NCBI GenBank assembly: GCA_000004695.1
Contig: CM000153.2
Location: 4,128,001 to 4,192,000 of the forward strand
DNA length: 64,000 nucleotides
Origin: Dictyostelium discoideum
Lineage: Eukaryota
Direction of reading: 5' to 3'
Part shown: in pieces, positions 3,478 through 41,820 of the stretch
Numbering within the stretch: position 1 is the first letter of the stretch
How the letters are laid out: every line of letters starts with the position of its first letter
Made by a program: the position numbers and the translations under genes
The notes under the pieces: generated by a model
Told to the model about the DNA's origin: nothing
Database searches by the model: none
The model's input: the letters and a program-made list of their open reading frames with translations, nothing else

Positions 3478-4036
3478 TTAAATAAAAACTTTTTTATTGA
3501 TCATCACACTTCTTACGGTTGCTTTTTTTTGTTGTGTTTTTATTTATAAAATATAAAAGATTGGATAATGTGTCATTCTTTGACATTTTTCGTTTAATGA
3601 TCAATATTTCTTTTAATATTAAAAAATAACATTTATCTTTTTTTTATTTAATTTATTTATTTATTTATTTTTAATTTATTAATATTTTTTATTTAGGGGT
3701 ACCTTTCATTTGAATTAAAATAAAATGAAACCCTTTTCCAAATTTGGTAATTGTCCAAAACTAAAAACTAAAATATAAAAATTGGGAAAATTTCATTGAT
3801 TAAAAGCTGTTATATTTTTAAAAATGAAATATTAGATTTGTAATTAAAAAAGCATAATACTAAATTGAATATTAAGTTTTAAGGAAAAAAAAAAAAAAAA
3901 AAAAAAAAAAAATGAAAAAAAAAAAAAAAAAAAAAAAATGAAAAATTGAAAAAATTTTGGTTTATTGCATAACTTTAAAATAAAAAACTATAATTAGTTG
4001 AACGTTTAAAAAGATAAACGAGTTTTTTTGTACATA

Positions 4037-9732: not shown

Positions 9733-12501
9733 ATGGAAGACTTGAAAAAAGAATTAGATAAATTATCAGGACTTGGAAATCAAGTTGAAAATGATGAAAT
9801 ATTTGTTGATAATGTTTCAAATAGTAAAATTTTAACATACAGTTGGGAAGAATTTTATAGTAAATGTAAACAATTTGAAAATGGTGAAGAATTATTATTA
9901 TTATTATTAACATGGGTTGAAATAATAATTAAATTTCAATCAATAATATCAAAGGACAATAATAATATTAATCAATTAAAATTACATAATTCTTGGTTTG
10001 AAAAAAAAAGATTTATTTTAAATAAATTATCAATTTTATCAACATCTGGTAATACATTAATTCAATTTTGTAAAATTTTAAATATTACATCAAATGATTT
10101 AAATAATACTAAAAATGAAGATGAAAATCAAGATGAAAATGAAATTTCAATATCACATTTAATAATTGAATTATCAAAAATGAATAATGAAATTAAAATT
10201 GATCAAATTAAACAACTTTTTAAATTTGGTCTAAATGTTAATCAAATTTATAAATTTAAAACACCATTGGATTGTGCCGCAGAACAAAAGAATATTGAAT
10301 TATTTAAAGAATTGATTGAATTGGGTTGTGGTGAATTTTCATCACATTGTATAATAAATAAATTATTTTATAAACAATTATCGTATGAACAAAAAGTTGA
10401 ATTAAAACCATACATGATGAAATTGTTTAATAGAAATCCAAAACTATCATTCAGAATTTGTTTTGACCAATTATTCCCATCAGAGAAAAATGTGAATGAA
10501 ATTTCATATAAATTTGAAACTTCAACAATGGGTCAAAGATATATAAGTGATGAAATATTTCAAAAGATTTTTCAATTTGGTATAGATTTTAAAAATCAAC
10601 CATCAAATTACTCACGTAGACCAGTTGCATCAGTTGAAGATGAAGTATTGGGGTTAAAATTATATGTTGAATTTGAGCCTGTTGCACCATCAATGACAAA
10701 GGCCTCAACAAGATTCTCACAACATTTATTGCAAATCGATAATTTACCAGATACAGAATTCTCTATAATCACTTTAAATAATGGTACAACCTATCCTTTA
10801 TTAATAATGCAAAATGTTTATAATGCTGAAAGTTTATTAAAATTATTACAATCAAAAACACAAAATGATTTACAAAAAATTGAAAATATTGACCCATTAA
10901 GTATCTCAAAATTAATTACATCAACAATTTTAATAAATCCAAGTGGTGGTTCATTATCTGATTATTTAATTTCACCAATTTTAAAAAATGATCAACAGCA
11001 ACAAAAGTATAATATTATACCAATTAATACAGATCAACCATTTGTTGAATCATCAAATGTTAGTATTGGTTTGTTCTTTTTAAATCAAATGAATGATCAA
11101 GTTCATCCACATTTAATTAAATTAATTAAATCAATTGATATACATCAATTTTTAACAGAATGGAGATTAACATTAAAACAACTTCATGAATTTTCAGTTG
11201 ATTTAATTTATAATAAAAATATTGAAAAATTAAATAATGGTATTGATGGTGGCAGTGGTGGTGGTGGTAATGGTGGTGATAATGGTGATTTAACAAAATT
11301 AAGATATGCTGGTATTATACCTGGTACTATTTTAACAATGTATTCAAAATTAATTACATTAAAGAATGAATTATTAAAAGAAAGAAAAAAACCAATAACT
11401 CATTGGAAATTATTATCAATTTTAGAACCAAAAGTTGCAGCTCGTTATTCCCAATTCATTATTGAACAACAAATTTCAACCAATTCTTCAATTATTCAAA
11501 GTTATCAAAATTTTAATCAAAAATCAATTTTTTCAATTTTTACTGAAACTTTTAAATTTAACAATCAACAACAACAACAACCATTGGAAATTGATGTAAA
11601 TCGTGAAATTGAAAATGAAGAATTAATATTTTTAAAATTTATTAATACAAAACATATAATTAATGAAGATATTTTAAAAATTTCAAAATTAACACCAGCA
11701 ACAATTCAAAAAATTATAAAAACTTTAGATTTTTCAAATTATGATAATAAAATTATAAATTGTTTATTTAAAAATATTTTACAACAAAATGGTTCAATTA
11801 AAGAATTATTTATAAAGAATTGTAAATCGTTAACTTTTGAAACATTAAAATCATTTTCAATATTTCAAGAGTTATATATTGGATCAATTAGAAAATTATC
11901 AATTATTGGGTGTTCAAAAATTTATGAAATCTCTGAAAAAGGTGTTTTTAATAGTTTATTTGGTACAACTAAACAATTAACAATGAATTCATTAGTTAAA
12001 TTAGAAGTTGATAGATGTAGTAGTTTAACCACTTTAAAATTAAATACACCAAATTTATTAACTCTTAGTGCAATTGATTGCTCCCAATTAAGGGTTTTTG
12101 ATGTTTTTGCACCAAAATTAAAAAAATTAAGAATTCAAGCTAATAAAGTTGGTTTAGAAACTTTTAATGTAATTTCAACATTTTCAAATTTAGAGTATTT
12201 AGATATTAGTAGAATTGTATCACCATCAACAAATGATTCAATCATTTCATTAGATTTGGATTTATGGAAGAATATTGAAATTTTAATATCAAAAGATGTT
12301 TTATCAATTGATAAAGTTATCATATCAAAATTAGAAAAATTAAAAACTTTAGATTTTACTGGTTGTTCTTCATTAAGAGAATTTGAAATTAAAAATGAAA
12401 CAATAATTATCAATAATTGTCCAAATTTAAAAACTTTATCTTTAAAAGGTACATTGATTAATAATGATCAAAAATATCATTTATTACAAACAATTTCCTA
12501 A
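9733..12501 (+). CDS. Large (922 aa) protein with ankyrin-like N-terminal repeats and C-terminal cysteine-containing leucine-rich repeats (F-box/LRR-like). This is paralog A of a tandem pair.
   Basis: Seen: one uninterrupted ORF. Motifs shared with the downstream paralog are 'PSGGSLSDY', 'IPINTDQPF' and 'KKRKKPITHWKLLSILEP'. The C-terminus has 'NCKSLTFETL..IIGCSKIYEIS..VDRCSSLTTLKLNTPNLLTLSAIDCSQLRVFDV...YLDISRIVSP..DFTGCSSLREFEI..NNCPNLKTLSLKG', the LRR_cc pattern. Family and function are inferred and otherwise unknown. Confidence 0.8.
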   Translation: MEDLKKELDKLSGLGNQVENDEIFVDNVSNSKILTYSWEEFYSKCKQFENGEELLLLLLTWVEIIIKFQSIISKDNNNINQLKLHNSWFEKKRFILNKLSILSTSGNTLIQFCKILNITSNDLNNTKNEDENQDENEISISHLIIELSKMNNEIKIDQIKQLFKFGLNVNQIYKFKTPLDCAAEQKNIELFKELIELGCGEFSSHCIINKLFYKQLSYEQKVELKPYMMKLFNRNPKLSFRICFDQLFPSEKNVNEISYKFETSTMGQRYISDEIFQKIFQFGIDFKNQPSNYSRRPVASVEDEVLGLKLYVEFEPVAPSMTKASTRFSQHLLQIDNLPDTEFSIITLNNGTTYPLLIMQNVYNAESLLKLLQSKTQNDLQKIENIDPLSISKLITSTILINPSGGSLSDYLISPILKNDQQQQKYNIIPINTDQPFVESSNVSIGLFFLNQMNDQVHPHLIKLIKSIDIHQFLTEWRLTLKQLHEFSVDLIYNKNIEKLNNGIDGGSGGGGNGGDNGDLTKLRYAGIIPGTILTMYSKLITLKNELLKERKKPITHWKLLSILEPKVAARYSQFIIEQQISTNSSIIQSYQNFNQKSIFSIFTETFKFNNQQQQQPLEIDVNREIENEELIFLKFINTKHIINEDILKISKLTPATIQKIIKTLDFSNYDNKIINCLFKNILQQNGSIKELFIKNCKSLTFETLKSFSIFQELYIGSIRKLSIIGCSKIYEISEKGVFNSLFGTTKQLTMNSLVKLEVDRCSSLTTLKLNTPNLLTLSAIDCSQLRVFDVFAPKLKKLRIQANKVGLETFNVISTFSNLEYLDISRIVSPSTNDSIISLDLDLWKNIEILISKDVLSIDKVIISKLEKLKTLDFTGCSSLREFEIKNETIIINNCPNLKTLSLKGTLINNDQKYHLLQTIS

Positions 12502-12636: not shown

Positions 12637-12672
12637 AAAAAATCCCACTTAATATTTTAAGTGGGATTTTTT
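12637..12672. other. Perfect inverted repeat (hairpin) in the 3' flank of paralog A.
   Basis: Seen: 'aaaaatcccactta' + 'atattt' + 'taagtgggattttt'. This gives a 12-14 bp perfect stem with a 6-nt loop, about 140 bp after the paralog A stop codon. Confidence 0.5.
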
Positions 12673-12755
12673 ATTTTTTTAATTTTTTTTTTTTTTTTTA
12701 TCTGATCAGAATATTTTAATTTTTATTTTTTTTATTATACTTTAAATTTTGTTTA

Positions 12756-15233
12756 ATGGAGAAAGTAAAGATATTAAAAGAATACCTTGAAAATAATAAT
12801 TATACAATTATTAAAGAGCAAGTTGGACAATTAGTAAAAGATGTTCATGAAGTTGGTAGAATTCTTTATTATTTAGAATTGGATACTATTTTAATAGAAG
12901 GTGATAGTAAGCTATTAGAATGGGTGGAAATTATGTGCCCTTTACACTTTTTAATTGAAGATATTTTAAAAAACAATGATGATAGTCTTATTCAAGAAAT
13001 TCCAAGGTTAACATATCATAGTTCTTGGTTTCCAAATGGTAAATTGATTTTAAATAAACTTGCAAATCTTCCAACACCAGGTATTGTGTTGTCACAATTT
13101 TGTAATATTTTCAAAATAACTCTAAGAGAATTAAATTCTGTAAAAGAGAAAGACGAGGAATCAAATACTGAATCAGTTTTACATTTAATTGTAAATTCGA
13201 ATAATACCAAAACCGATATGAAAATCGATCAAATTAGAGAATTAGTAATGATTGGAACAAATATTAATATCATGGAGTATAATGGTATTGAACAATACAC
13301 AATTTTAGATTGTGCGGCATCAAAAAAGAATATAGAATTATTTAAAGCGTTAATTGATATGGGTGCAGGTGAAAACGCTGCTCGTTCAAATAATTTCCAA
13401 TTTTATAAAGAATTATCATATGAAACTAAAATACATATTAAACCATACATGAAGAAATTATTACAAAGAAATTTAATGGTATATAATAAACTTTGTTTTG
13501 AACAATTATTCCCAAATATTAATTATAAAATTAAAACTGCATCATATGGTATTAGATCAATTACCCATAATCAATTCAAATTATTATTTTCTGACAATAA
13601 TAATTTTCCATTTGGTAGTACAACAACAACAACAACAACTTCTACGAATACAAATAATAAATTAAAATTAATTGAAGATGAAAAATTAGGTTTAGCTATG
13701 ATAGTTGAATTTGAACCAAAATTTCCAACAATTGATAAACTAAAAAATAGATTAATTCAAGGAATTTTAGGACTTGATATTTTCTTGGAATCAGAGTTTT
13801 CATTAATTAAATTTAATAAAACAACTATTTACCCAATTTTAATTAAAGAGCATCAAGGTAGTACCAAAAATAATTTAATTTTACATGATTTAATTTTATC
13901 CAATGATACAGATAAATTGAATAATTTAGATTCTTCAAGTATTTCAAAATTAATTGTTTCCTCAATTGTAGTTAATCCAAGTGGCGGAACATTATCTGAT
14001 TTTATAGTTTCACTAATTGGTGATGAAAATAATAAACATGCTCAAAAATATAAATTAATTCCAATTAATACAGGTTCAGCATTTTCAGCAGCTGATAAGG
14101 TTGGTACATTTTTATACTTTTTAAAAGAAATGAATGATACAGTTCATTCTGATGTTATAGATAAAATTGAAAAATTAGATGTACATGAGTTCTTATCAAA
14201 ATGGTTTGGCGCAATTCCCACTTATAATTTATTATCACAAAATTTAGTTTCAAATAAGAAAATATATAATATTGAGCAAGGACAAAATGAATACTATGTT
14301 GGTGCTCAATTTCAACCAGATGAAATAAGATCTTTATATTCAAAATTATTTAAATTAAAGAGTTCATTATTAAAGAAAAGAAAAAAACCAATCACTCATT
14401 GGAAATTATTAGAAATACTTGAACCTATAACCTATTACATATATAAAAAACATATTGAAAAAACATCAAATCAATCACTTATCAAAAGGTGTGAAGAATT
14501 CTACCAAAAACAAAATGTTCTACCACAACTAAGGAATTATAACCCAAATTTACAAGTTGATTATCAGATGGAAATAGATAAAATCAAAAATGAAGAAAAT
14601 TTAATTAAGAATTTAAAATCAAAATTTCCACAAAATTTAGAAAATAAGTTTTTATTTAATCAATTAACTTATATAAATGCTGAAAAGTTATTTAAATCTT
14701 TAGATTTTTCAAAATTATCAAAAGATCAATTCCCAAATTATATAAAGAATTTATTTGAAAATCAAGATGAAATTAGAAAATTCCAAATTTTAAATTGTAA
14801 ATTTTTTACAACAGATAATTTATTAAATTCAAAATTTTTAAATAGTATTACAAAGTTATCAATAGTAAATTGTTCATCTTTCAAAGGATTACATGGAAAA
14901 TCTACATATTTATTTGCCAAACTATCAACTTCTTCGGAATTTTTGAAATTGAAATCATTGGTTGAATTGAAAATTATAGGTTGTAAAGAATTTATAACTT
15001 TAAAAATTGATACACCAAATTTAAAATATCTATCAACTCGCAATTGTCCAAATTTATCTGATTTTGATGTTAAATCACCAAAATTAAAGAAATTAGAAAT
15101 TCAAGGTAATATGGTGGGTAAAATTATGTTTGATGTAATTTCAAATTTTAAAAAATTAAAATATTTAGATATTAGTAGAATTATACCACCAAAATCAAAT
15201 ATAGCAGATAATAAACCTTTAAAAAAAAATTAG
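12756..15233 (+). CDS. Paralog B of the large LRR protein. The 825-aa ORF terminates inside an A9 homopolymer, and the true product probably continues to 16792 (next feature).
   Basis: Seen: the ORF is colinear with paralog A (shared 'VVNPSGGTLSDF', 'YKLIPINTGSAF', 'KKRKKPITHWKLLEILEP', and the CxxL LRRs 'VNCSSFKGL..IIGCKEFITLKIDTPNLKYLSTRNCPNLSDFDV..YLDISRIIPP'). It ends 'NKPLKKN*' with TAG at 15231-33, immediately after the A9 run at 15221..15229. Confidence 0.75.
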   Translation: MEKVKILKEYLENNNYTIIKEQVGQLVKDVHEVGRILYYLELDTILIEGDSKLLEWVEIMCPLHFLIEDILKNNDDSLIQEIPRLTYHSSWFPNGKLILNKLANLPTPGIVLSQFCNIFKITLRELNSVKEKDEESNTESVLHLIVNSNNTKTDMKIDQIRELVMIGTNINIMEYNGIEQYTILDCAASKKNIELFKALIDMGAGENAARSNNFQFYKELSYETKIHIKPYMKKLLQRNLMVYNKLCFEQLFPNINYKIKTASYGIRSITHNQFKLLFSDNNNFPFGSTTTTTTTSTNTNNKLKLIEDEKLGLAMIVEFEPKFPTIDKLKNRLIQGILGLDIFLESEFSLIKFNKTTIYPILIKEHQGSTKNNLILHDLILSNDTDKLNNLDSSSISKLIVSSIVVNPSGGTLSDFIVSLIGDENNKHAQKYKLIPINTGSAFSAADKVGTFLYFLKEMNDTVHSDVIDKIEKLDVHEFLSKWFGAIPTYNLLSQNLVSNKKIYNIEQGQNEYYVGAQFQPDEIRSLYSKLFKLKSSLLKKRKKPITHWKLLEILEPITYYIYKKHIEKTSNQSLIKRCEEFYQKQNVLPQLRNYNPNLQVDYQMEIDKIKNEENLIKNLKSKFPQNLENKFLFNQLTYINAEKLFKSLDFSKLSKDQFPNYIKNLFENQDEIRKFQILNCKFFTTDNLLNSKFLNSITKLSIVNCSSFKGLHGKSTYLFAKLSTSSEFLKLKSLVELKIIGCKEFITLKIDTPNLKYLSTRNCPNLSDFDVKSPKLKKLEIQGNMVGKIMFDVISNFKKLKYLDISRIIPPKSNIADNKPLKKN

Positions 15234-16792
15234 ATTTAAGAAATTGGGAATTCCTTGAAATTTTAATAGCAAATAATGTAACGGCAATTGAAAAAATTAA
15301 AATTTCAAATAATAAAAAGTTAAAAGTTTTAGATTTAGATGGTTGTTCTTCATTATCAAAAATTTCAAGTGATTGTTGTTGTAATGTTTTAGAAACATTA
15401 AAAACGAATAATACAATTATTAAAAATGATAATACTCAACTATTAACAGAATTAAATAATAGTAAAACGATATTTATCTATGGTGATTGTAATACTAAAA
15501 ATCAATTAAAATCAATAATTATTAAAAAAACACAACAATATTTAATTATAAATGAAAAACTTTATAAATTAAAATTTGAATGTGAAAATTATGATAATCA
15601 AACTATTCCAAAATCAAATGATTCAATCTTATTTTTAATTGATGAAAGCATTCCAATAATTGATGCCAAAAATCAAATTTTTAAACTAACAAAAGAAATC
15701 AATCAATCATCAATTGTTAATGTAATCTATTTTGGTAATGATCAATCATATATAATGGTATTAGATAGTGAGGAAGTAAAAGGTGAACCTAAAATAAATA
15801 TTACTAAATTCAGTGAAAAATATGGTAAATACAAAATTCAATGCTTAAAAGAAATTATCGAGTGTTTCCTAAATAAAAAACAATTTCAACAACAATGTAT
15901 AAATATTGAACAAACTTTAACTGGAAAAATAGATAAAGAATTAAATGAAATTTATTCATCATTTGAATTAAATGAATTAAAAGTTGTTGAAATACTTAAT
16001 AAATTAGAAGGTTGGGATTACAATGAACTTTTTAAATTTTTAAATATTAAAATTAATAATATTAATATTAAAATTAATAGTAATAATAATAACAATTTAA
16101 TTATAAACTTAAAGAAATTTTATTTCATTTGTAAAATTCAAGATGGTGATAAAGTTGATTTTTCAAAAATATTAAAAGAATTAGATAGACAATTCCCTCA
16201 AATAAATAATGAAGTACTAAAGTGTAGTGAAAATGAAGGATTAATTAATTTTCAATTCACATCTACAATATTATTAACTAGAATAATTGAATCAGGTTGT
16301 TTATCATCATTTTATTGGTTTGTTAAAAGAAATCCTTTACTTTTGGATGACATTTCTTTAGATGTTGATAAAGAATTTCAGCGTGATGGAAGTCCAATCT
16401 GTTTCTTGGTTAGATATAATTGTATGGAAATAATTAGATGGTTAAAACGAAATGGTTATTTAAATGAATTAATGTTAAAAGCAGCAATATTGAAATCATG
16501 TAGTCTTGGTAAAATGAAAATAACTCAACTTTTATTAGATTTAGGTGCAGACTATACCTTTATATATAGTGATGAAGATAATTTACCATTATCACCAATT
16601 TTCTTTGCTTTAAATAGTAATAATAAAGCATTGGTAATATTACTAGTTGAAAAGTCAAAAGAAAATGGTGATCCATTATTTAAATTAAAAAATTCAAGAG
16701 GGGAATTAATCACTCTAACCTCAAAAAATCCTGAAATTAATCAATACATTTCTTTACAACAAAATAATTTTAATAGAAATAAAAATATTTAA
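15234..16792 (+). CDS. Probable C-terminal continuation of paralog B in the +1 frame, including ankyrin repeats. This is a frameshifted gene or pseudogene.
   Basis: Seen: with one extra A in the 15221-15229 run, the translation reads 'PLKKKLDLRNWEFLEILIANNV...', colinear with paralog A's 'SLDLDLWKNIEILISKDV'. It continues through ORF 15755..16792, which carries ankyrin-like repeats ('LLDLGADYTFIYSDEDNLPLSPIFFALNSNNKALVILLV', 'ICFLVRYNCMEIIRWLKRNGYLNELMLKAAILKSCSLGKMKITQLLLDLGAD'). The frame switch falls inside aligned conserved sequence, and no GT..AG intron fits. Confidence 0.6.
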
Positions 16793-17337
16793 AAATTTAA
16801 AAAACTAAAATAATAATAAAGAGTTTTTTTTTTTTTTTTTTTATAAAATCAATGATAAAATTTATAAAAAAATAAACATTTTATAAAAAAAAAAAAAAAT
16901 ATCTTTTGTAATTATTTAAATAATTCAAAAAAATGTTTTTTTTTTTTTTTTTTTTATAAAATAATGATATAGTGCGTTTTGAGCAAATTAATCATAAAAA
17001 AAAAAATTAAAAAAACTCACTCAAGTCAAACAAAAAAAAAAAAAAAAAAAAAAAAAAATAAAAAAAGGGTTTAAACTCGCTATAAAATATTAAAAAACTT
17101 TCTAAGTTAATTATTATGAATATTTTTTTTTTTATTTTAAAAATTTAAAACTATACAATAAAAATATTTTATACTAAAATTTTTTTGGAAATAAAATAAA
17201 TTGAATTTTATTTATTTATTTATTTTTATTATTATTATTATTATTATTAATATTATTATTATTATTATTTTTAAAATAAAAAAAAAATTAAAAAAGTTAT
17301 CTTTGTTTTGATAAAAGATTTTATTTTTATTTTATTT

Positions 17338-17437
17338 TATTTTTCTTTTTTTAATTTAAAAAAAAGTGGGGGAAAATATCTCCAACTATTTTTCTTTTTT
17401 TAATTTAAAAAAAAGTGGGGGAAATGTTTCACAGTTA
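17338..17437. repeat. Tandem direct repeat, 2 x ~49 bp.
   Basis: Seen: 'tttttcttttttttaatttaaaaaaaagtgggggaaaatatctccaacta' is followed by 'tttttcttttttttaatttaaaaaaaagtgggggaaatgtttcacagtt'. The G-rich core is unusual in this AT-rich context. It lies about 480 bp upstream of the transposase ATG and may be a sub-terminal repeat of the mobile element. Confidence 0.6.
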
Positions 17438-17629
17438 AAAAAAAAAAATTCACTCATTATTTTAACCAACTATAAATAAAATGAAATACAATTGGCCATA
17501 GTTTTTATAATAATAAACCATCACATCTACATTTTTGGTTAAAATGATCATTTTTTATTTTAAATAAAAAAACCACTTGCAGTTTATAATAATAAAAACA
17601 ATTAAAAAAACATAATTAATAAAACCAAA

Positions 17630-17915
17630 ATAATAATATAATTAATTATATTTATAATTGTAATAGAAATAGAAATAGAAATAGAAATAGAAATATTAAT
17701 AGCAATAGCTATATAGTAGTAATGGTAATAGTAATAGCAATAGAAATATAGTAGTAATAATTGTAATAATTGTAATAATTGTAATAATAGTAATAACAGT
17801 AATAGCAATAGAAATATAGTGGTAATAGTAATAATAGTAATAGCAATATAGTAGTAATAATAGTAACAATAGTGATAGCAATAGCAATATAGTAGTAATA
17901 ATAGTAATAATAATC
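17630..17915. repeat. Complex tandem minisatellite of AATAG(A/C/T) units.
   Basis: Seen: 'aatagaaatagaaatagaaatag...gtaataattgtaataattgtaataattgtaataatagtaataacagtaatagcaatag...'. The repeat lies directly upstream of the transposase start at 17918. It generates the spurious minus-strand ORFs at 17602..17887. Confidence 0.7.
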
Positions 17916-17917
17916 TA

Positions 17918-18646
17918 ATGAAACCTAAAAGAAGTTTAACTCACTTAATTGAGCATACTGAGAGAATATACAATGCATTAGAATATGGGGTTAGAATCGG
18001 TAATATAAGTAGAGCTGCTCGTGAAAATGGTTTGACCAGAAATCAACTCAATTATTACCGTAGAGATATCAAAGATAATAGAATTAGACAATCCCATGGC
18101 GGCTCCAGATCTCCAAGTACATTTACTACAGAACAGTATGAACTCTTGGTGGCAACTGTGGTAGCAATGGTTAATGTCCGACCTAATCTCACAATGAGGG
18201 AGATCGCCCAAGAAATTAACTCAGATCAAAATAGTATTTTTTATAAAAAGGTCAACAAATCGAGGATATGTTCAATATTCAAAGAATTAAAATGGAATTA
18301 CCACTCTCCAACCTATAAACAAGTAAGTAAAAAAGTTTTAATATATTAAATTACCAACTATTTGTTAATTTTTTTTTTTTTTTTTTAGGAAAATAAATAC
18401 AAAATTGAAAATTTATTAAAATTATTTTATTTTAATACAATAATTTACAATACTGATTGGAAAAACATTTATTTTTTAGATGAATGCTCATTTTCTTCTA
18501 GAGGTATTATATTTTATTATTTTAGATTGAATATAAATATTTATACTAATTTTTTTTTTTTTTTTTTTTAAAAAATATTTTTAATTAAATAATTGTCTTT
18601 CTTTCCATCCATTCTGAATTCCACTATTAACATTATAAGGTAATTA

Positions 18647-18701
<55 letters not shown>

Positions 18702-19268
18702 TACAAAATAAATAATTAAAACTAATAAGGTTTTTTATTAGGATTAAGGAGATCTAAAGCTGTTGGACCGATTGGAGAGCCGGTTTATGTTACCAATAGC
18801 ACCAGCATTTCTGAGACCTACAATGGGTTTTTCACCATCAGTTTGGATGATTGTTTGTATAAAATCCGTGATAAAACCAATAATACTGAAGACTTCTTTC
18901 AATATGTTAGAGAACTTTTGGAAAGTGGATTTTGCAAGCCTGGTTCATTATTGGTAATGGACAATGCTCCAATTCACGGTGGTATCGAAGCTTTAAATGC
19001 ACTATTTGAATTGTTTAATCAATATTCGGTTCAATTGATATTTCTTCCTTCCTATTCTCCAGAGTTGAATCCCATTGAGCGTTTCTTTGGCCATATCAAG
19101 AACCATTTCTACCGAGAACGTAATTCCCATGGGTCCTTCCTTGATGAGATTATTGACACCATCGATAATTCTCTAATTAAAAACAAAGAACTGTTCATTG
19201 GATTTTATCGCCAAAGCCTAAACTTCTGGTCTGAAAAAAAAAGAAATCAATACCAAAGAAAAAGGTGA
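17918..19268 (+). mobile_element. Tc1/mariner-superfamily DNA transposon transposase gene (DDE_3 type, DDT-like). CDS join(17918..18322,18389..18503,18742..19268), 348 aa. Element termini not defined.
   Basis: Seen: exon 1 encodes an HTH/paired-like N-terminus ('RAARENGLTRNQLNYYRRDIKDN...LTMREIAQEIN'), with a GTAAGT donor at 18323. Exon 2, 'ENKYKIENLLKLFYFNTIIYNTDWKNIYFLDECSFSSR', carries the first catalytic D in the 'FLDECSF' block (compare Tc1 'FSDESKF'). A GT donor lies at 18504 and the acceptor AG at 18740-41. Exon 3, 'GLRRSKAVGPIGEPVYV...LLVMDNAPIHGG...IFLPSYSPELNPIERFFGHIKN', provides the second D and the E of the DDE triad in the classic 'DNAPIH' and 'YSP(D/E)LNPIE' motifs. The 3' flank (19270-19620) has direct sub-repeats ('ttattgggataataacaaaagatattttt' twice; 'tgtttgatttg(a/g)a' twice). 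I could not identify the TIRs or a TA target-site duplication by eye. Confidence 0.8.
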
Positions 19269-19649
19269 AAAAAGAAAAATAATAAAAAAAAAAAAATAAT
19301 AAAAAAAAAAAAACAAATAAAAAAAAAAAAAAAAAAAAAAAAAAAGTGTTTGATTTGAAAAATTTAAAAAAAAAAATTAAAAAATGTTTGATTTGGATAA
19401 TCCGCACAATAAAATTATAAAAAAAAAATAAAAAAAATAAAAAAAAAACATTGTTTTGAATTATTGGGATAATAACAAAAGATATTTTTTTTTTTTACCC
19501 AGATATTTATTGGATTATTGAGATAATAGCAAAAGATATTTTTTTTTTTTTTTTTTTTTATTTATAAAAGTTGAAGGTTTTTTTTTTTTTTTTCATTCCC
19601 ATTATTTTTTTTTTACACTTAAGATTATAAAATAAATTTACACACAAAT

Positions 19650-20310
19650 AATAATAATTATGTAGATGAAAATCTATTTTGGAAAGTTTATAAAAATTTG
19701 TTTATTAGAGATTTAATATTTGATAAAATCATTTCAACAACAGTCATTTATAAATATGATGATGATAGTCTTAGTGGTGGTAAATTTATTGTACCTACTG
19801 ATAGAGCACAATATTTTAAAATATAATTTCTTTATCATGGATGATTAAAAGAAATTTATGGTCATTATTAAAGTATAAATTAATTCATAATGAAGAATTA
19901 ATTATAAAGAAAAAAGCAGTAGAATTACTATTACAAGAATGTAAACATGATAAAGATTTATTAAAATTATTCTATCAAAACAAGTATTATCAAATGAATC
20001 AAATTGATTTAATTTTAAATTCAATTAAACATTCAAATTTAATGGCATTAAAATTATTCATTGAAAAATATAATTACCAACAGATAATAATTCAATGGAT
20101 ATGGCACTAGAAATTACAAGTAGACAATATTATAGAAATGAAGAAGAACAAAAACAATCATTTGAAATTTTCCAATATTTTTGGGAAAAGAAAAAAGATA
20201 CTGTTCAATGCACTCAATCAGAGTTATTCAATCCAAATAGAAATTATAATACATATATGTTACAATTAATTTTAAATAATCCAAGTTTATATGGTGAATC
20301 TTCACAATCA

Positions 20311-20370
<60 letters not shown>

Positions 20371-22879
20371 ATTGGTTTAATGACATCAAGACAATTTTTT
20401 AATCTTGCAATTATGTCAGTAATACCTGAAAAAATTAAAATTGAATTACTTAATAGAGGATTTGTTAAAAATGAAAAAAGTATATATCGTGATGGTGATT
20501 ATATTGCTAAAACAATTCAAAAGCAATCACCATATCTTCCACAATCAGTTTATAGTTATTTAGAAAAGAGTTATCATTTGAATGAATTATATGAAAATCA
20601 TACCATTTCAGTTTTTTATTTTTTTAAAATATTAATTGAATATCCTGAAAAAGAAGATTCTCTTTCAATTTTAAAAAATTTCGTTAATGTAGCACACAAA
20701 TTTACAGATTTAGAAATTAAATCATATAAAACATTATCAATTAATCCAAAAAGTTATAAACCAAGTCAAAAAGTAGAAATTTTACAAGCTATTTCAAGTT
20801 TTCATTTTACATTGAAAATTAAGATAATAGAATCACTATTTCCGATTGATTCATTAACATTAAAATCTACACGATTCATTTTTGATAAATTAAAATATTC
20901 AATTGATAATGTTGGAACAATAGAACATGTTCCAAATGCAGAATTAATTCCACAAAGTTTTTATCATTTGAATATTATAAAAACAGCAGATGTAGATTTA
21001 CTTGACCAATTTTTAAATGAATTTCATTCAGATGCTGAAAGAAATTTAATATTTAGAATATATGATGAAAATCCATTAAATAAAGATTATTTCAAAGATT
21101 GTTCAATTCAAGATAGTGAAAAGATATCAAAACTCATCGATAGACTATCAAGTGTTAAAGAATTCAATTCAAATTCAAATTCATTTTTAAAATTGTTTAA
21201 AATCAAAACTTTTACCAATTTCGAGTGAATTATATATTTCAAGTTTATTAAAATTTAAAGAAACATCACGTAAACAAACATATATACACGCTAAAGTTTT
21301 AGACCAAGCATTATGTGATTTCTTTTCAGAAAAGAATAATTTAACATCAAATTTAACATCATTCATTAAATTCATTAATTTTAGAACTCTTGCAATTACA
21401 TATCTCATTGAAAAAGTTTTAAATTCCAATGATTTAGAACTTACAGAATTATTATTAAATACAATATGTAATAATAATAACAATAATAATAATAATGGTG
21501 CAGGTATTATAATGGCTCCAGTTTCTTTTAAAACATCCAATCCTGACATAATTAAATTAATCATTTCAAAAAGTAATTGTCATAAATTATTTGATTTTGA
21601 AGGTTTAATTGATACAGTTATTAGCGCCAGCAATGTTTGTAATATTAGTAATCCAAATACTGATTCTCAAACCATTGAATTAATTGAAATTGTTATTGAT
21701 TTTTTACATTCAAATAAAATTTATCAAAGAAATTCAAAAGAAGGATTTGGATTTGGATTTGGATTTGGATTTGGATTTGGAACAACGAATCAACAAGCTG
21801 AAAAAACAATAATTTCCAACGATGCAACAAAGATTGCACTTTTAAAGAAGAAATCCATTGAAATTTTACAACTTTTATTTAAATATAAAAACCTGTTTCA
21901 TTGGGATTCACAATTATTTCCAAAACTTCCAAAATTACCAACTATTCAATTGGATGATGAAATACTTCCAAAATCAGATAAACCAATAATGTCAATTTAT
22001 GAACACCAAGATTTAGAAGACCAAGATATATATCAATGTAGAAGAAGAAAGCCAAAAAATAAACATGGTGGTGGAAGTGGTAGAAGAAGAATTGATACCT
22101 ATGATGACACTGATTATGATGGCACCAATAACAACATTCCCTATATTGGTAGTATTGGTGGTAGTGTTTTTGCAAGTACTGAAGATTCAGTCAATGGTGG
22201 TCTTAGTAGTAGTAATAACAATAATAATGAATTAGGTAGTAATCAAAGTCAATTTATTCTTGGTGGTAATTTTACAGGTTTTAGTGTAAATTATCAGAGT
22301 AAAGATAAAAATAAGATTAGAAATCTATACAATACCAATTTCCTTGATAAATTTAAAACTCATCAAGCTCAATCAATATTTGATTCAATGGATCAATTCA
22401 ATAGAAATAATATGTTTTCATTTATACACTCGAGTAGTAGTGTTTTTCAAGATTCAATATATCATTCAATAAAGAATAGAAGAATAGATGTAATTGAAAA
22501 ATTAATAACTATTCAGATGTTTACAGATGATCATGCAAAATTAATTTATTCAGATTTTTTAAAAAGAATTATTAGAAAAGATGATGGTGTTGATTTAATA
22601 GCTTTTAAATACCTTTTTTCACATAGATTCCTCAAGATATTCAGTACAGAGTTTTTACAAACAATGTCACAAGAATTATTAATTTGTGCTGTTTCAGAAT
22701 GTTGTTTTCATCTTTGTCATTGGTTATTGTCAACAGATAATCCATGCAATGTATATGTTGAATTCTTGCCATTTAAAACAACCTATATTTTGAATGTCGA
22801 GAAAAAATTATCACATTGCGAATCACCAGTTTTCAAAGAATATATGATGAAAAAATTAAAACCTTTTATTAAATACTAA
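19650..22879 (+). pseudogene. Frame-disrupted locus encoding a Dictyostelium-specific protein. Segments: ~19650..19829, 19838..20110, 20095..21228, 21230..22879. Probable pseudogene, possibly unannotated short introns.
   Basis: Seen: four consecutive ORF pieces lie on the same strand, with neighbours always in different frames. Each junction overlaps or abuts by 40 nt or less. At the 20071-20108 junction no GT dinucleotide exists, so no intron can rescue it. At 21190-21228 only a 49-nt GTTTAA..CAAG 'intron' (21195..21243) would restore frame; it has the right length modulo 3 but is atypically short with a weak donor. The pieces include poly-N runs and a (GF)6 repeat 'EGFGFGFGFGFGFGTT'. The locus lies immediately 3' of the transposon. 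Confidence 0.5.
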
Positions 22880-23187
22880 ATAACAAAATAAAAAATAAAT
22901 CATAAAATAAAAATAAATCATAAATAAAAAAATTAAATAAATTAAAAATACACTCAATAATATCCTCATATATTCCTTTTTTTTTTTTTTTTTTTTGTTT
23001 TAAATAAATATCTATAGCAAAAAAATACGCTTTATTATTTTAGTTTTTTAAATTTTTATATATCAACTGTTTTTTAAAAAAATTAATTAAAATAAAAAAA
23101 ATAAAAAAAAATAAAAAAAAAGAAAAAATAGTGGGGTTTGGGAATTTATAATTTATAAATAGTTTTTTTTTTTTTTTTCCCAATTAA

Positions 23188-41290: not shown

Positions 41291-41820
41291 TAAAAAAAAA
41301 AAAAAAAAGTTAACTAACAATTAATTGCCATTTTTGGTGTTTTGTTTTTTTTTTTTTTTTTTTTTTTTGAAAAACTTAAAATTTAACATTTTAAAAAAAA
41401 TTAGAAAAAAGGGGTAAAGATTTCTTATTTTATAAAAGAAATTGCGACTGTAAACAAAAAATTACTTAATATCTGAAAAAATTTATCTGACCAACCTTTT
41501 TAAAAAATTTTTTTTAAACAGCGATTTTTTTTTTTTTTTAAAACATCTTGTCCAATAGCGATTATTTTTGATATTTAAAAAACAAATTTCGTTAATATTA
41601 ATTTTAAAAGGAAATATTAAATATTAATTTTAAATATTTAATACAAATGTAAAACTAATATATAAATTCTAATTTATTGTTTTTAATTTTTTAATTTTTT
41701 GTTTATTAAATAATTATTAATTTTTTTATTTCCATTCACACAAACAATAATTTTTCATTTTTTTAATTGTGTTAATTGAATACTCTTGTGTGGAAAAAAA
41801 AAAAAAAAAAAAAAAAAAAA

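Follow-up and report, generated by a model that had tools for sequence, protein, structure and literature searches.

A one-base difference in a coding adenine run splits the leucine-rich repeat-ankyrin gene DDB_G0286155 of the Dictyostelium discoideum reference strain

Why does a gene end at a TAG right behind a run of nine adenines (A9) when a long open frame leads on from the same place? The question is raised by DDB_G0286155 (UniProt Q54M67) of D. discoideum strain AX4, called gene B below, which follows its tandem paralog DDB_G0286153 (Q54M68, paralog A) in the 64,000 nucleotides of chromosome 4 that we analysed (the window; G+C content about 20% throughout). A first-pass annotation of this DNA had proposed a single gene split by a one-base change in the A run, without a real intron, and had offered three causes: a homopolymer sequencing error, a fresh pseudogenising mutation or, less likely, programmed frameshifting. 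Colinearity with two paralogs and intact alleles with ten adenines (A10) elsewhere bear out the single split gene, and among the three causes it is the pseudogenising mutation that the evidence supports. We consider it highly likely that in the AX4/AX2-type lineage a real and recent loss of one base from a coding A10 run truncates gene B, an otherwise conserved single-exon gene for a leucine-rich repeat (LRR)-ankyrin protein.

The broken frame and its intact alleles

The three open reading frames (ORFs) reported by the first-pass annotation (9733..12501, 12756..15233 and 15755..16792, encoding 922, 825 and 345 residues) were recovered as described, and so was the end of the gene B frame at a TAG right behind the A run. 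The letters at 15210-15233 read AAT AAA CCT TTA AAA AAA AAT TAG, with an A run of exactly nine bases. A second frame, with codon starts equal to 2 modulo 3, is open from 15215 to 16792. The two open frames overlap by 19 nucleotides only (15215-15233), and the A run lies inside this overlap; the ORF 15755..16792 is just the part of the second frame that follows its first ATG. The 520 codons downstream of the run contain no stop, whereas 2000 shuffles averaged 55, with a minimum of 34. Composition puts the chance of such a stop-free stretch at about 7e-26; over the same nucleotides, 25 to 103 stops occur in each of the other five frames. The peptide LDLRNWEFLEILIANNVTAIEK is an example of what is encoded after 15233. 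When one A was inserted, the rebuilt gene B became a single ORF of 1345 residues, and BLASTP aligned it with paralog A straight over the junction (39% identity over 885 residues, E 1e-171), in agreement with the protein of about 1345 residues, colinear with paralog A, that had been predicted from one added A. The change had been described as a +1 frameshift. The frame break is there, but the sign has to be reversed: one A is missing from the genome, which puts the downstream part in the -1 frame, and read-through would need a -1 slip; "+1" fits the repair only.

Relatives of gene B cross the junction undisturbed. Both paralog A and a D. citrinum paralog, ACTFIV_005013, align over it without a gap; the latter is a single-exon protein of 1632 residues from a non-syntenic locus, colinear with gene B residues 55-1315. 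In an alignment of five family members, invariant residues stand before the A run (Y803, L804, D805, I806, S807, R808, I809 and P812; YLDISRI..P) and after it (L826, L828, W831, E835, L837 and I838; L.L..W...E.LI).

A check against the locus in other D. discoideum strains, suggested by the first-pass annotation, yielded intact A10 alleles from two sources. The 90% cluster of the gene B protein includes a 1345-residue member from the Logan assemblies, where we found five contigs of 4.17-4.21 kb from two Sequence Read Archive series (SRR26869256, -57, -58, -66 and SRR28564540). All five are colinear with 12672..16884, differ from the window by the same four substitutions (at 12724, 14426, 15449 and 15782; 0.1% divergence) and carry A10 within an uninterrupted, unspliced ORF of 1345 residues. 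The second source, a more distant isolate, is the assembly with locus-tag prefix ACTFIW (GCA_054859355.1). Its coding sequence is 94.9% identical to that of the window and has A10 in an intact single-exon gene of 1334 codons, which adjoins the downstream side of the ACTFIW paralog A. Coding indels between the window and ACTFIW measure 3, 39, 3, 3 and 3 nucleotides, and the A run alone differs by a number (1 nucleotide) that is not a multiple of three. Because ACTFIW, the outgroup, has A10, this length is the ancestral state and the change went from A10 to A9; with the same outgroup, the changes derived in the window lineage are A9 and two substitutions, of which one is synonymous and the other Lys-to-Glu. 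The ratio of non-synonymous to synonymous substitution rates (dN/dS) between the window and ACTFIW is 0.43 before the break (p 8e-6) and 0.52 after it (Fisher p 0.024). Values below one show purifying selection between strains in both halves, and the C-terminal module is therefore constrained coding sequence in the species. An exact look-up in the protein collection returned neither the products of the 825- and 345-residue ORFs nor the A10 protein of the AX4 haplotype, and was uninformative, as the called ACTFIW ortholog was equally absent from it. The 39-nucleotide difference from ACTFIW is an in-frame insertion at 13611-13649 that encodes a poly-threonine tract, FGSTTTTTTTSTN; further triplet-repeat indels of 3 to 24 nucleotides occur in both genes, a length variation typical of Dictyostelium coding repeats.

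On this basis, we propose that gene B was broken recently and by a single event. The ancestral gene consists of one exon of about 1335-1345 codons. Its protein starts with an ankyrin-like region, continues with a conserved central region and LRRs that contain cysteines, and closes with a C-terminal module that has ankyrin repeats at its end. The coding A10 run has lost one A in the laboratory lineage, represented by AX4 and by an AX2-type assembly with locus-tag prefix ACTFIT, most likely through replication slippage. Translation would then stop two codons further on, and the expected product of 825 residues would be missing its final two or three LRRs and all of the C-terminal module, a loss of 39% in protein length. 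In addition, the mRNA may be destabilised by its long untranslated tail, and function may be lost. The event is young, since no further lesion has arisen in the 520 downstream codons and they hold a single derived amino-acid change. AX2 and AX4 were separately derived from NC4, so that an A9 shared by them would date at least to the common laboratory ancestor.

Several points weigh against this explanation. A perfectly intact downstream frame is also to be expected if low-level reading of it continues. The Logan contigs, from an A10 strain, may have been assembled from either genomic or transcript reads. A9 in AX4 and AX2 is known at the level of assemblies and protein models, and the independence of ACTFIT from the AX4 reference is one that we infer from indel differences and from the account of Holland et al. 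(PMC12745789), who assembled AX2-214 and wild isolates de novo from Nanopore plus Illumina data and deposited the assemblies in August 2025. The ACTFIT, ACTFIV and ACTFIW records fit this set, and ACTFIT is plausibly AX2-214, a link that is ours.

Table 1. Coordinates of gene B, of the segments treated as introns in public models, and of neighbouring features in the window
Feature	Position	Strand	Description
Gene B, upstream reading frame	12756..15233	+	825 codons to premature TAG; from the ORF list and identity to both public proteins
A9 homopolymer, site of the one-base deletion	15221..15229	+	A10 in intact alleles, coding Lys-Lys-Lys
Premature TAG resulting from the frame change	15231..15233	+	doubles as AG acceptor of both public bridging "introns"
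Gene B, continuation in the -1 frame	15230..16792	+	520 codons, fully open; last LRRs, helical linker region, C-terminal ankyrin repeats
"Intron" of the AX4 model	15118..15233	+	116 nt, GTAAAA..TTAG; 83.6% AT; splicing reproduces the 1288-residue protein exactly
"Intron" of ACTFIT_005521	15175..15233	+	59 nt, GTAGAA..TTAG; 78% AT; splicing reproduces the 1325-residue protein exactly
N-terminal "intron" of the AX4 model	12907..12960	+	in-frame segment of 54 nt; 67% AT
Tandem paralog A (DDB_G0286153, Q54M68)	9733..12501	+	922 residues; from the ORF list, BLASTP and family alignment
Tc1/mariner-type DNA transposon	16888-19496		67-nt inverted repeats 16888-16954 / 19430-19496, 91% complementary
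Gene downstream of gene B	19632-22884	+	single intact 1089-codon ORF in ACTFIW (17355-20624)

Other readings of the frame break

The A9 allele might still yield some full-length protein, either because RNA polymerase II slippage adds an A to the transcript or because ribosomes slip by -1. Such leaky rescue could coexist with the truncating deletion, and a selected, programmed version of it is a separate and stronger claim. We regard it as unlikely. The zero frame does present A_AAA_AAA at 15221-15227 (TT[A AAA AAA] AAT), a canonical in-register X_XXY_YYZ heptamer with the stop two codons behind it; the downstream frame is free of secondary lesions, and A runs are known slippage sites (PMC5009743, PMC6908487). 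The run has only nine A, however, where stalling and frameshifting have been described at 12 or more consecutive A (PMC6908487). We also detected no stimulatory structure downstream: the fold of 15230-15330 (101 nucleotides) reaches -10.3 kcal/mol, with a z of -0.45, and 55 of 200 shuffles fold at least as well. Rescue of this kind would probably yield no more than a few per cent. Paralog A has an in-frame A9 run of its own at 10001-10009, another potential slippage hot spot. These two are the only A9 runs in about 28 kb of long ORFs in the window and, apart from an A28 at 41794, the only A or T runs of at least nine bases there.

The A9/A10 run could also be more than an accident, namely an on/off switch, worked by mutation, in an LRR-ankyrin family that evolves fast and is restricted to Dictyostelium. 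In that case the laboratory lineage would be "off" or at a low, slippage-rescued level, the state would be revertible, and it would matter for an interaction phenotype such as recognition or defence. If true, this would make gene B a eukaryotic analogue of a bacterial contingency locus. It shares with such loci an on/off control by the length of a coding homopolymer and membership of a fast-evolving family of repeat proteins. It differs from them in being eukaryotic and in that only two states were observed, each fixed within its lineage; neither reversible switching nor selection for mutability is in evidence, and we hold this reading to be very improbable.

Another possible cause is a miscounted homopolymer in the reference, the laboratory strain itself having A10. 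Homopolymers are classic error sites, and the window and ACTFIT do disagree at 12 of them in 24 kb. The position of these disagreements speaks against an error in gene B. Over 24.1 kb (window 2726-26826) the comparison with ACTFIT gave no substitutions and 12 indels; all 12 fall in A or T runs of about 17 nucleotides or more (e.g. at 3905, 8837, 16824, 18657 and 23909), and none in short runs, which agree. The lengths of long homopolymers in these assemblies are unreliable or hypervariable. As the indel differences are confined to long A/T runs, ACTFIT would seem to be a separate assembly of essentially the genotype of the window. In gene B both assemblies read A9, and the AX4 protein model can be reproduced only from A9-type sequence. 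ACTFIW, whose locus-tag prefix is adjacent to that of ACTFIT and which probably belongs to the same submission, has A10 here; an A10 at this place is thus within what these assemblies resolve. Further, the frame of the gene downstream of gene B is broken by four indels, each of them the same in the window and in ACTFIT and none of them in a long homopolymer, which indicates that real frame-breaking mutations exist at the locus. With two assemblies in agreement on A9, the sequencing error that headed the first-pass list of causes is most improbable.

The public records of gene B suggest yet another reading, a real short intron that joins the two frames and leaves the gene intact in AX4. The public products measure 1288 residues in AX4 and 1325 residues in ACTFIT (ACTFIT_005521, GCA_054883475.1), and we rebuilt both models exactly by splicing the window sequence (Table 1). 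The first-pass annotation had stated that no GT..AG intron is possible. This wording goes too far, since such introns are formally possible and in public use: both candidates have GT..AG ends, both restore the frame, and two annotation efforts picked them. In substance the statement stands, as neither is credible. The two models disagree on the intron, sharing the acceptor but not the donor. The AT content of the candidates, 78-84%, resembles that of the gene (78%) and not that of the flanking intergenic DNA (90-92%). The longer segment encodes the invariant Y803, L804, D805, I806, S807, R808, I809 and P812, while removal of the shorter one deletes SRIIPPKSNIADNKPLKKKLD, including the invariant S807, R808, I809 and P812. 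A10 strains carry the same nucleotides in frame within an uninterrupted ORF, and the members of the family are single-exon genes. The usual Dictyostelium donor is GTAAGT-like, unlike the GTAGAA of the shorter segment. A real intron is hardly to be believed on these grounds, and the bridging segments are best read as annotation devices that keep the model open over the frameshift. The 54-nucleotide "intron" near the N-terminus of the AX4 model, which we recovered by brute force from the 1288-residue protein, is probably spurious too: it deletes SKLLEWVEIMCPLHFLIED, including the family-invariant W56 and V57, and is unused in the ACTFIT model. The 1288- and 1325-residue products probably exist in no strain. 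Literature searches on gene IDs, run accessions and the locus-tag prefix found nothing relevant.

Programmed -1 frameshifting, the remaining cause named by the first-pass annotation, is excluded, as the two-frame arrangement is not conserved, orthologous alleles with A10 being simply in one frame, so that nothing has been selected for reading in two frames, and as no downstream structure accompanies the heptamer.

The protein family and the surrounding locus

The frame break cuts through a protein of composite domain structure. The 825-codon frame encodes an ankyrin-like region at the N-terminus, the conserved central region and the greater part of the LRR domain. This domain was identified by Pfam as PF23622 (LRR_At1g61320_AtMIF1) at residues 668-804, with E 2.3e-7 and 31 bits against a cut-off of 26.9, and the AlphaFold model shows a regular ladder of beta-strands at 675-809 with confidence values (pLDDT) of about 65-80. 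The C-terminal ankyrin repeats remain sub-threshold in Pfam when gene B is searched alone (19 bits against 27.3). The D. citrinum paralog scores 68 bits on Ank_2, and a profile of the five family members matches ankyrin-1 and DARPins in the PDB at profile positions 1235-1365 (E 1e-13 to 1e-9); ankyrin repeats were the only matches in PDB sequence and profile searches. For the conserved central region (about 240-620) neither Pfam nor PDB sequence and profile searches gave a match. A structure prediction of the 825-residue part from a 4-row alignment reached a mean pLDDT of 51.9, with values below 50 in the central region 240-524.

Paralog A is colinear with gene B residues 53-892 and ends near residue 900, about where the LRR region of gene B ends. 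That it lacks the C-terminal module of gene B, as had been noticed in the first-pass annotation, is correct, but the module measures about 445 residues instead of the 520 or so given there. The description of gene B as an LRR protein with a C-terminal ankyrin module that has no counterpart in paralog A holds at the family level, through Pfam, the family profile and the D. citrinum paralog. When the C-terminal part was used in an exhaustive representative search, the D. citrinum paralog ACTFIV_005013 was the one true relative among the matches, the rest being generic ankyrin proteins. A word-indexed protein search with the C-terminal 520 residues gave no match and missed even the identical public protein, the candidates being swamped by low-complexity words; with the full-length query the same type of search returned two clusters only.

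Downstream of gene B the window contains a transposon and a decayed gene. The first arm of the Tc1/mariner-type element lies 96 nucleotides past the gene B stop, and the element separates the 3' end of gene B from the decayed neighbour. Its ORFs are split, one being helix-turn-helix-like (17918..18349) and the other matching the Pfam DDE_3 transposase (18843..19268, E 3.6e-15). ACTFIW is without this 2.5-kb transposon segment and keeps just direct repeat-motif copies to the right of the site. The neighbour, intact in ACTFIW, is broken in the window into four frame segments by indels of +2 at 19811, -1 at 20073, +1 at 21189 and +1 at 22864, and a TAA at 19817 is possibly another break; its dN/dS against ACTFIW is 0.58. 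ACTFIT is identical to the window at all of these lesion sites, and its annotation fuses the neighbour with transposase pieces into a 1310-residue model. In the laboratory lineage the neighbour thus has the look of a pseudogene with multiple hits. Taken together, the transposon and the four-indel neighbour show local gene decay around gene B: this stretch of chromosome 4 is accumulating inactivating changes in the laboratory lineage, the gene B deletion being the most recent and the mildest of them.

On the upstream side, the 254-nucleotide spacer between paralog A and gene B contains a perfect hairpin with an 11-bp stem at 12642-12667 (ATCCCACTTAA TATT TTAAGTGGGAT), flanked by A7 and T6. The five Logan contigs start just past it, within about 20 nucleotides. 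The hairpin may resemble a terminator that works in both directions, or it may just be where the assembler broke off.

Consequences and comparison with known systems

In the reference strain of a major model organism, DDB_G0286155 is present as a truncating allele, which two public annotations disguise as an intron-containing gene. Since the affected strain is the reference one, the null or truncated allele has come to stand for the gene in the databases. The value of the observation is mainly practical, in that it offers an annotation correction and a natural pair of intact and truncated alleles. Anyone knocking out, tagging or expressing DDB_G0286155 in AX2 or AX4 would otherwise be misled, and so would users of UniProt Q54M67 and those who count introns or family members. 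Natural isolates with the intact allele are a ready comparison for the function of an uncharacterised LRR-ankyrin family. The locus is also a clean, dated example of early gene decay in Dictyostelium, with a homopolymer deletion and an untouched downstream frame, beside an older four-indel pseudogene and a transposon.

Gene B resembles several known systems to different degrees. Programmed -1 frameshifting and transcriptional slippage operate on A-rich heptamers such as A_AAA_AAG of dnaX and GAAAAAA of potyviruses (PMC5009743). The A_AAA_AAA heptamer of gene B, its immediate zero-frame stop and its long -1 ORF are of the same make. Unlike these systems, gene B has no downstream stimulator, its layout is not conserved and nothing points to a need for two products. 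The frameshift-bridging pseudo-introns of automated eukaryotic gene models are matched by the short GT..AG segments that keep the gene B model open. These are an annotation artefact and not a biological system, and they describe how the locus now stands in public records. The closest likeness is to strain-specific frameshift alleles produced by homopolymer slippage. Gene B shares with them a length change of one unit within a coding mononucleotide run, the segregation of an intact allele in relatives, an undecayed downstream frame and the restriction of all other indels to multiples of three. No essential difference separates it from this class, and the deletion is an ordinary kind of event, a nascent unitary pseudogene or truncation polymorphism, which is special only in that its carrier is the reference laboratory lineage.

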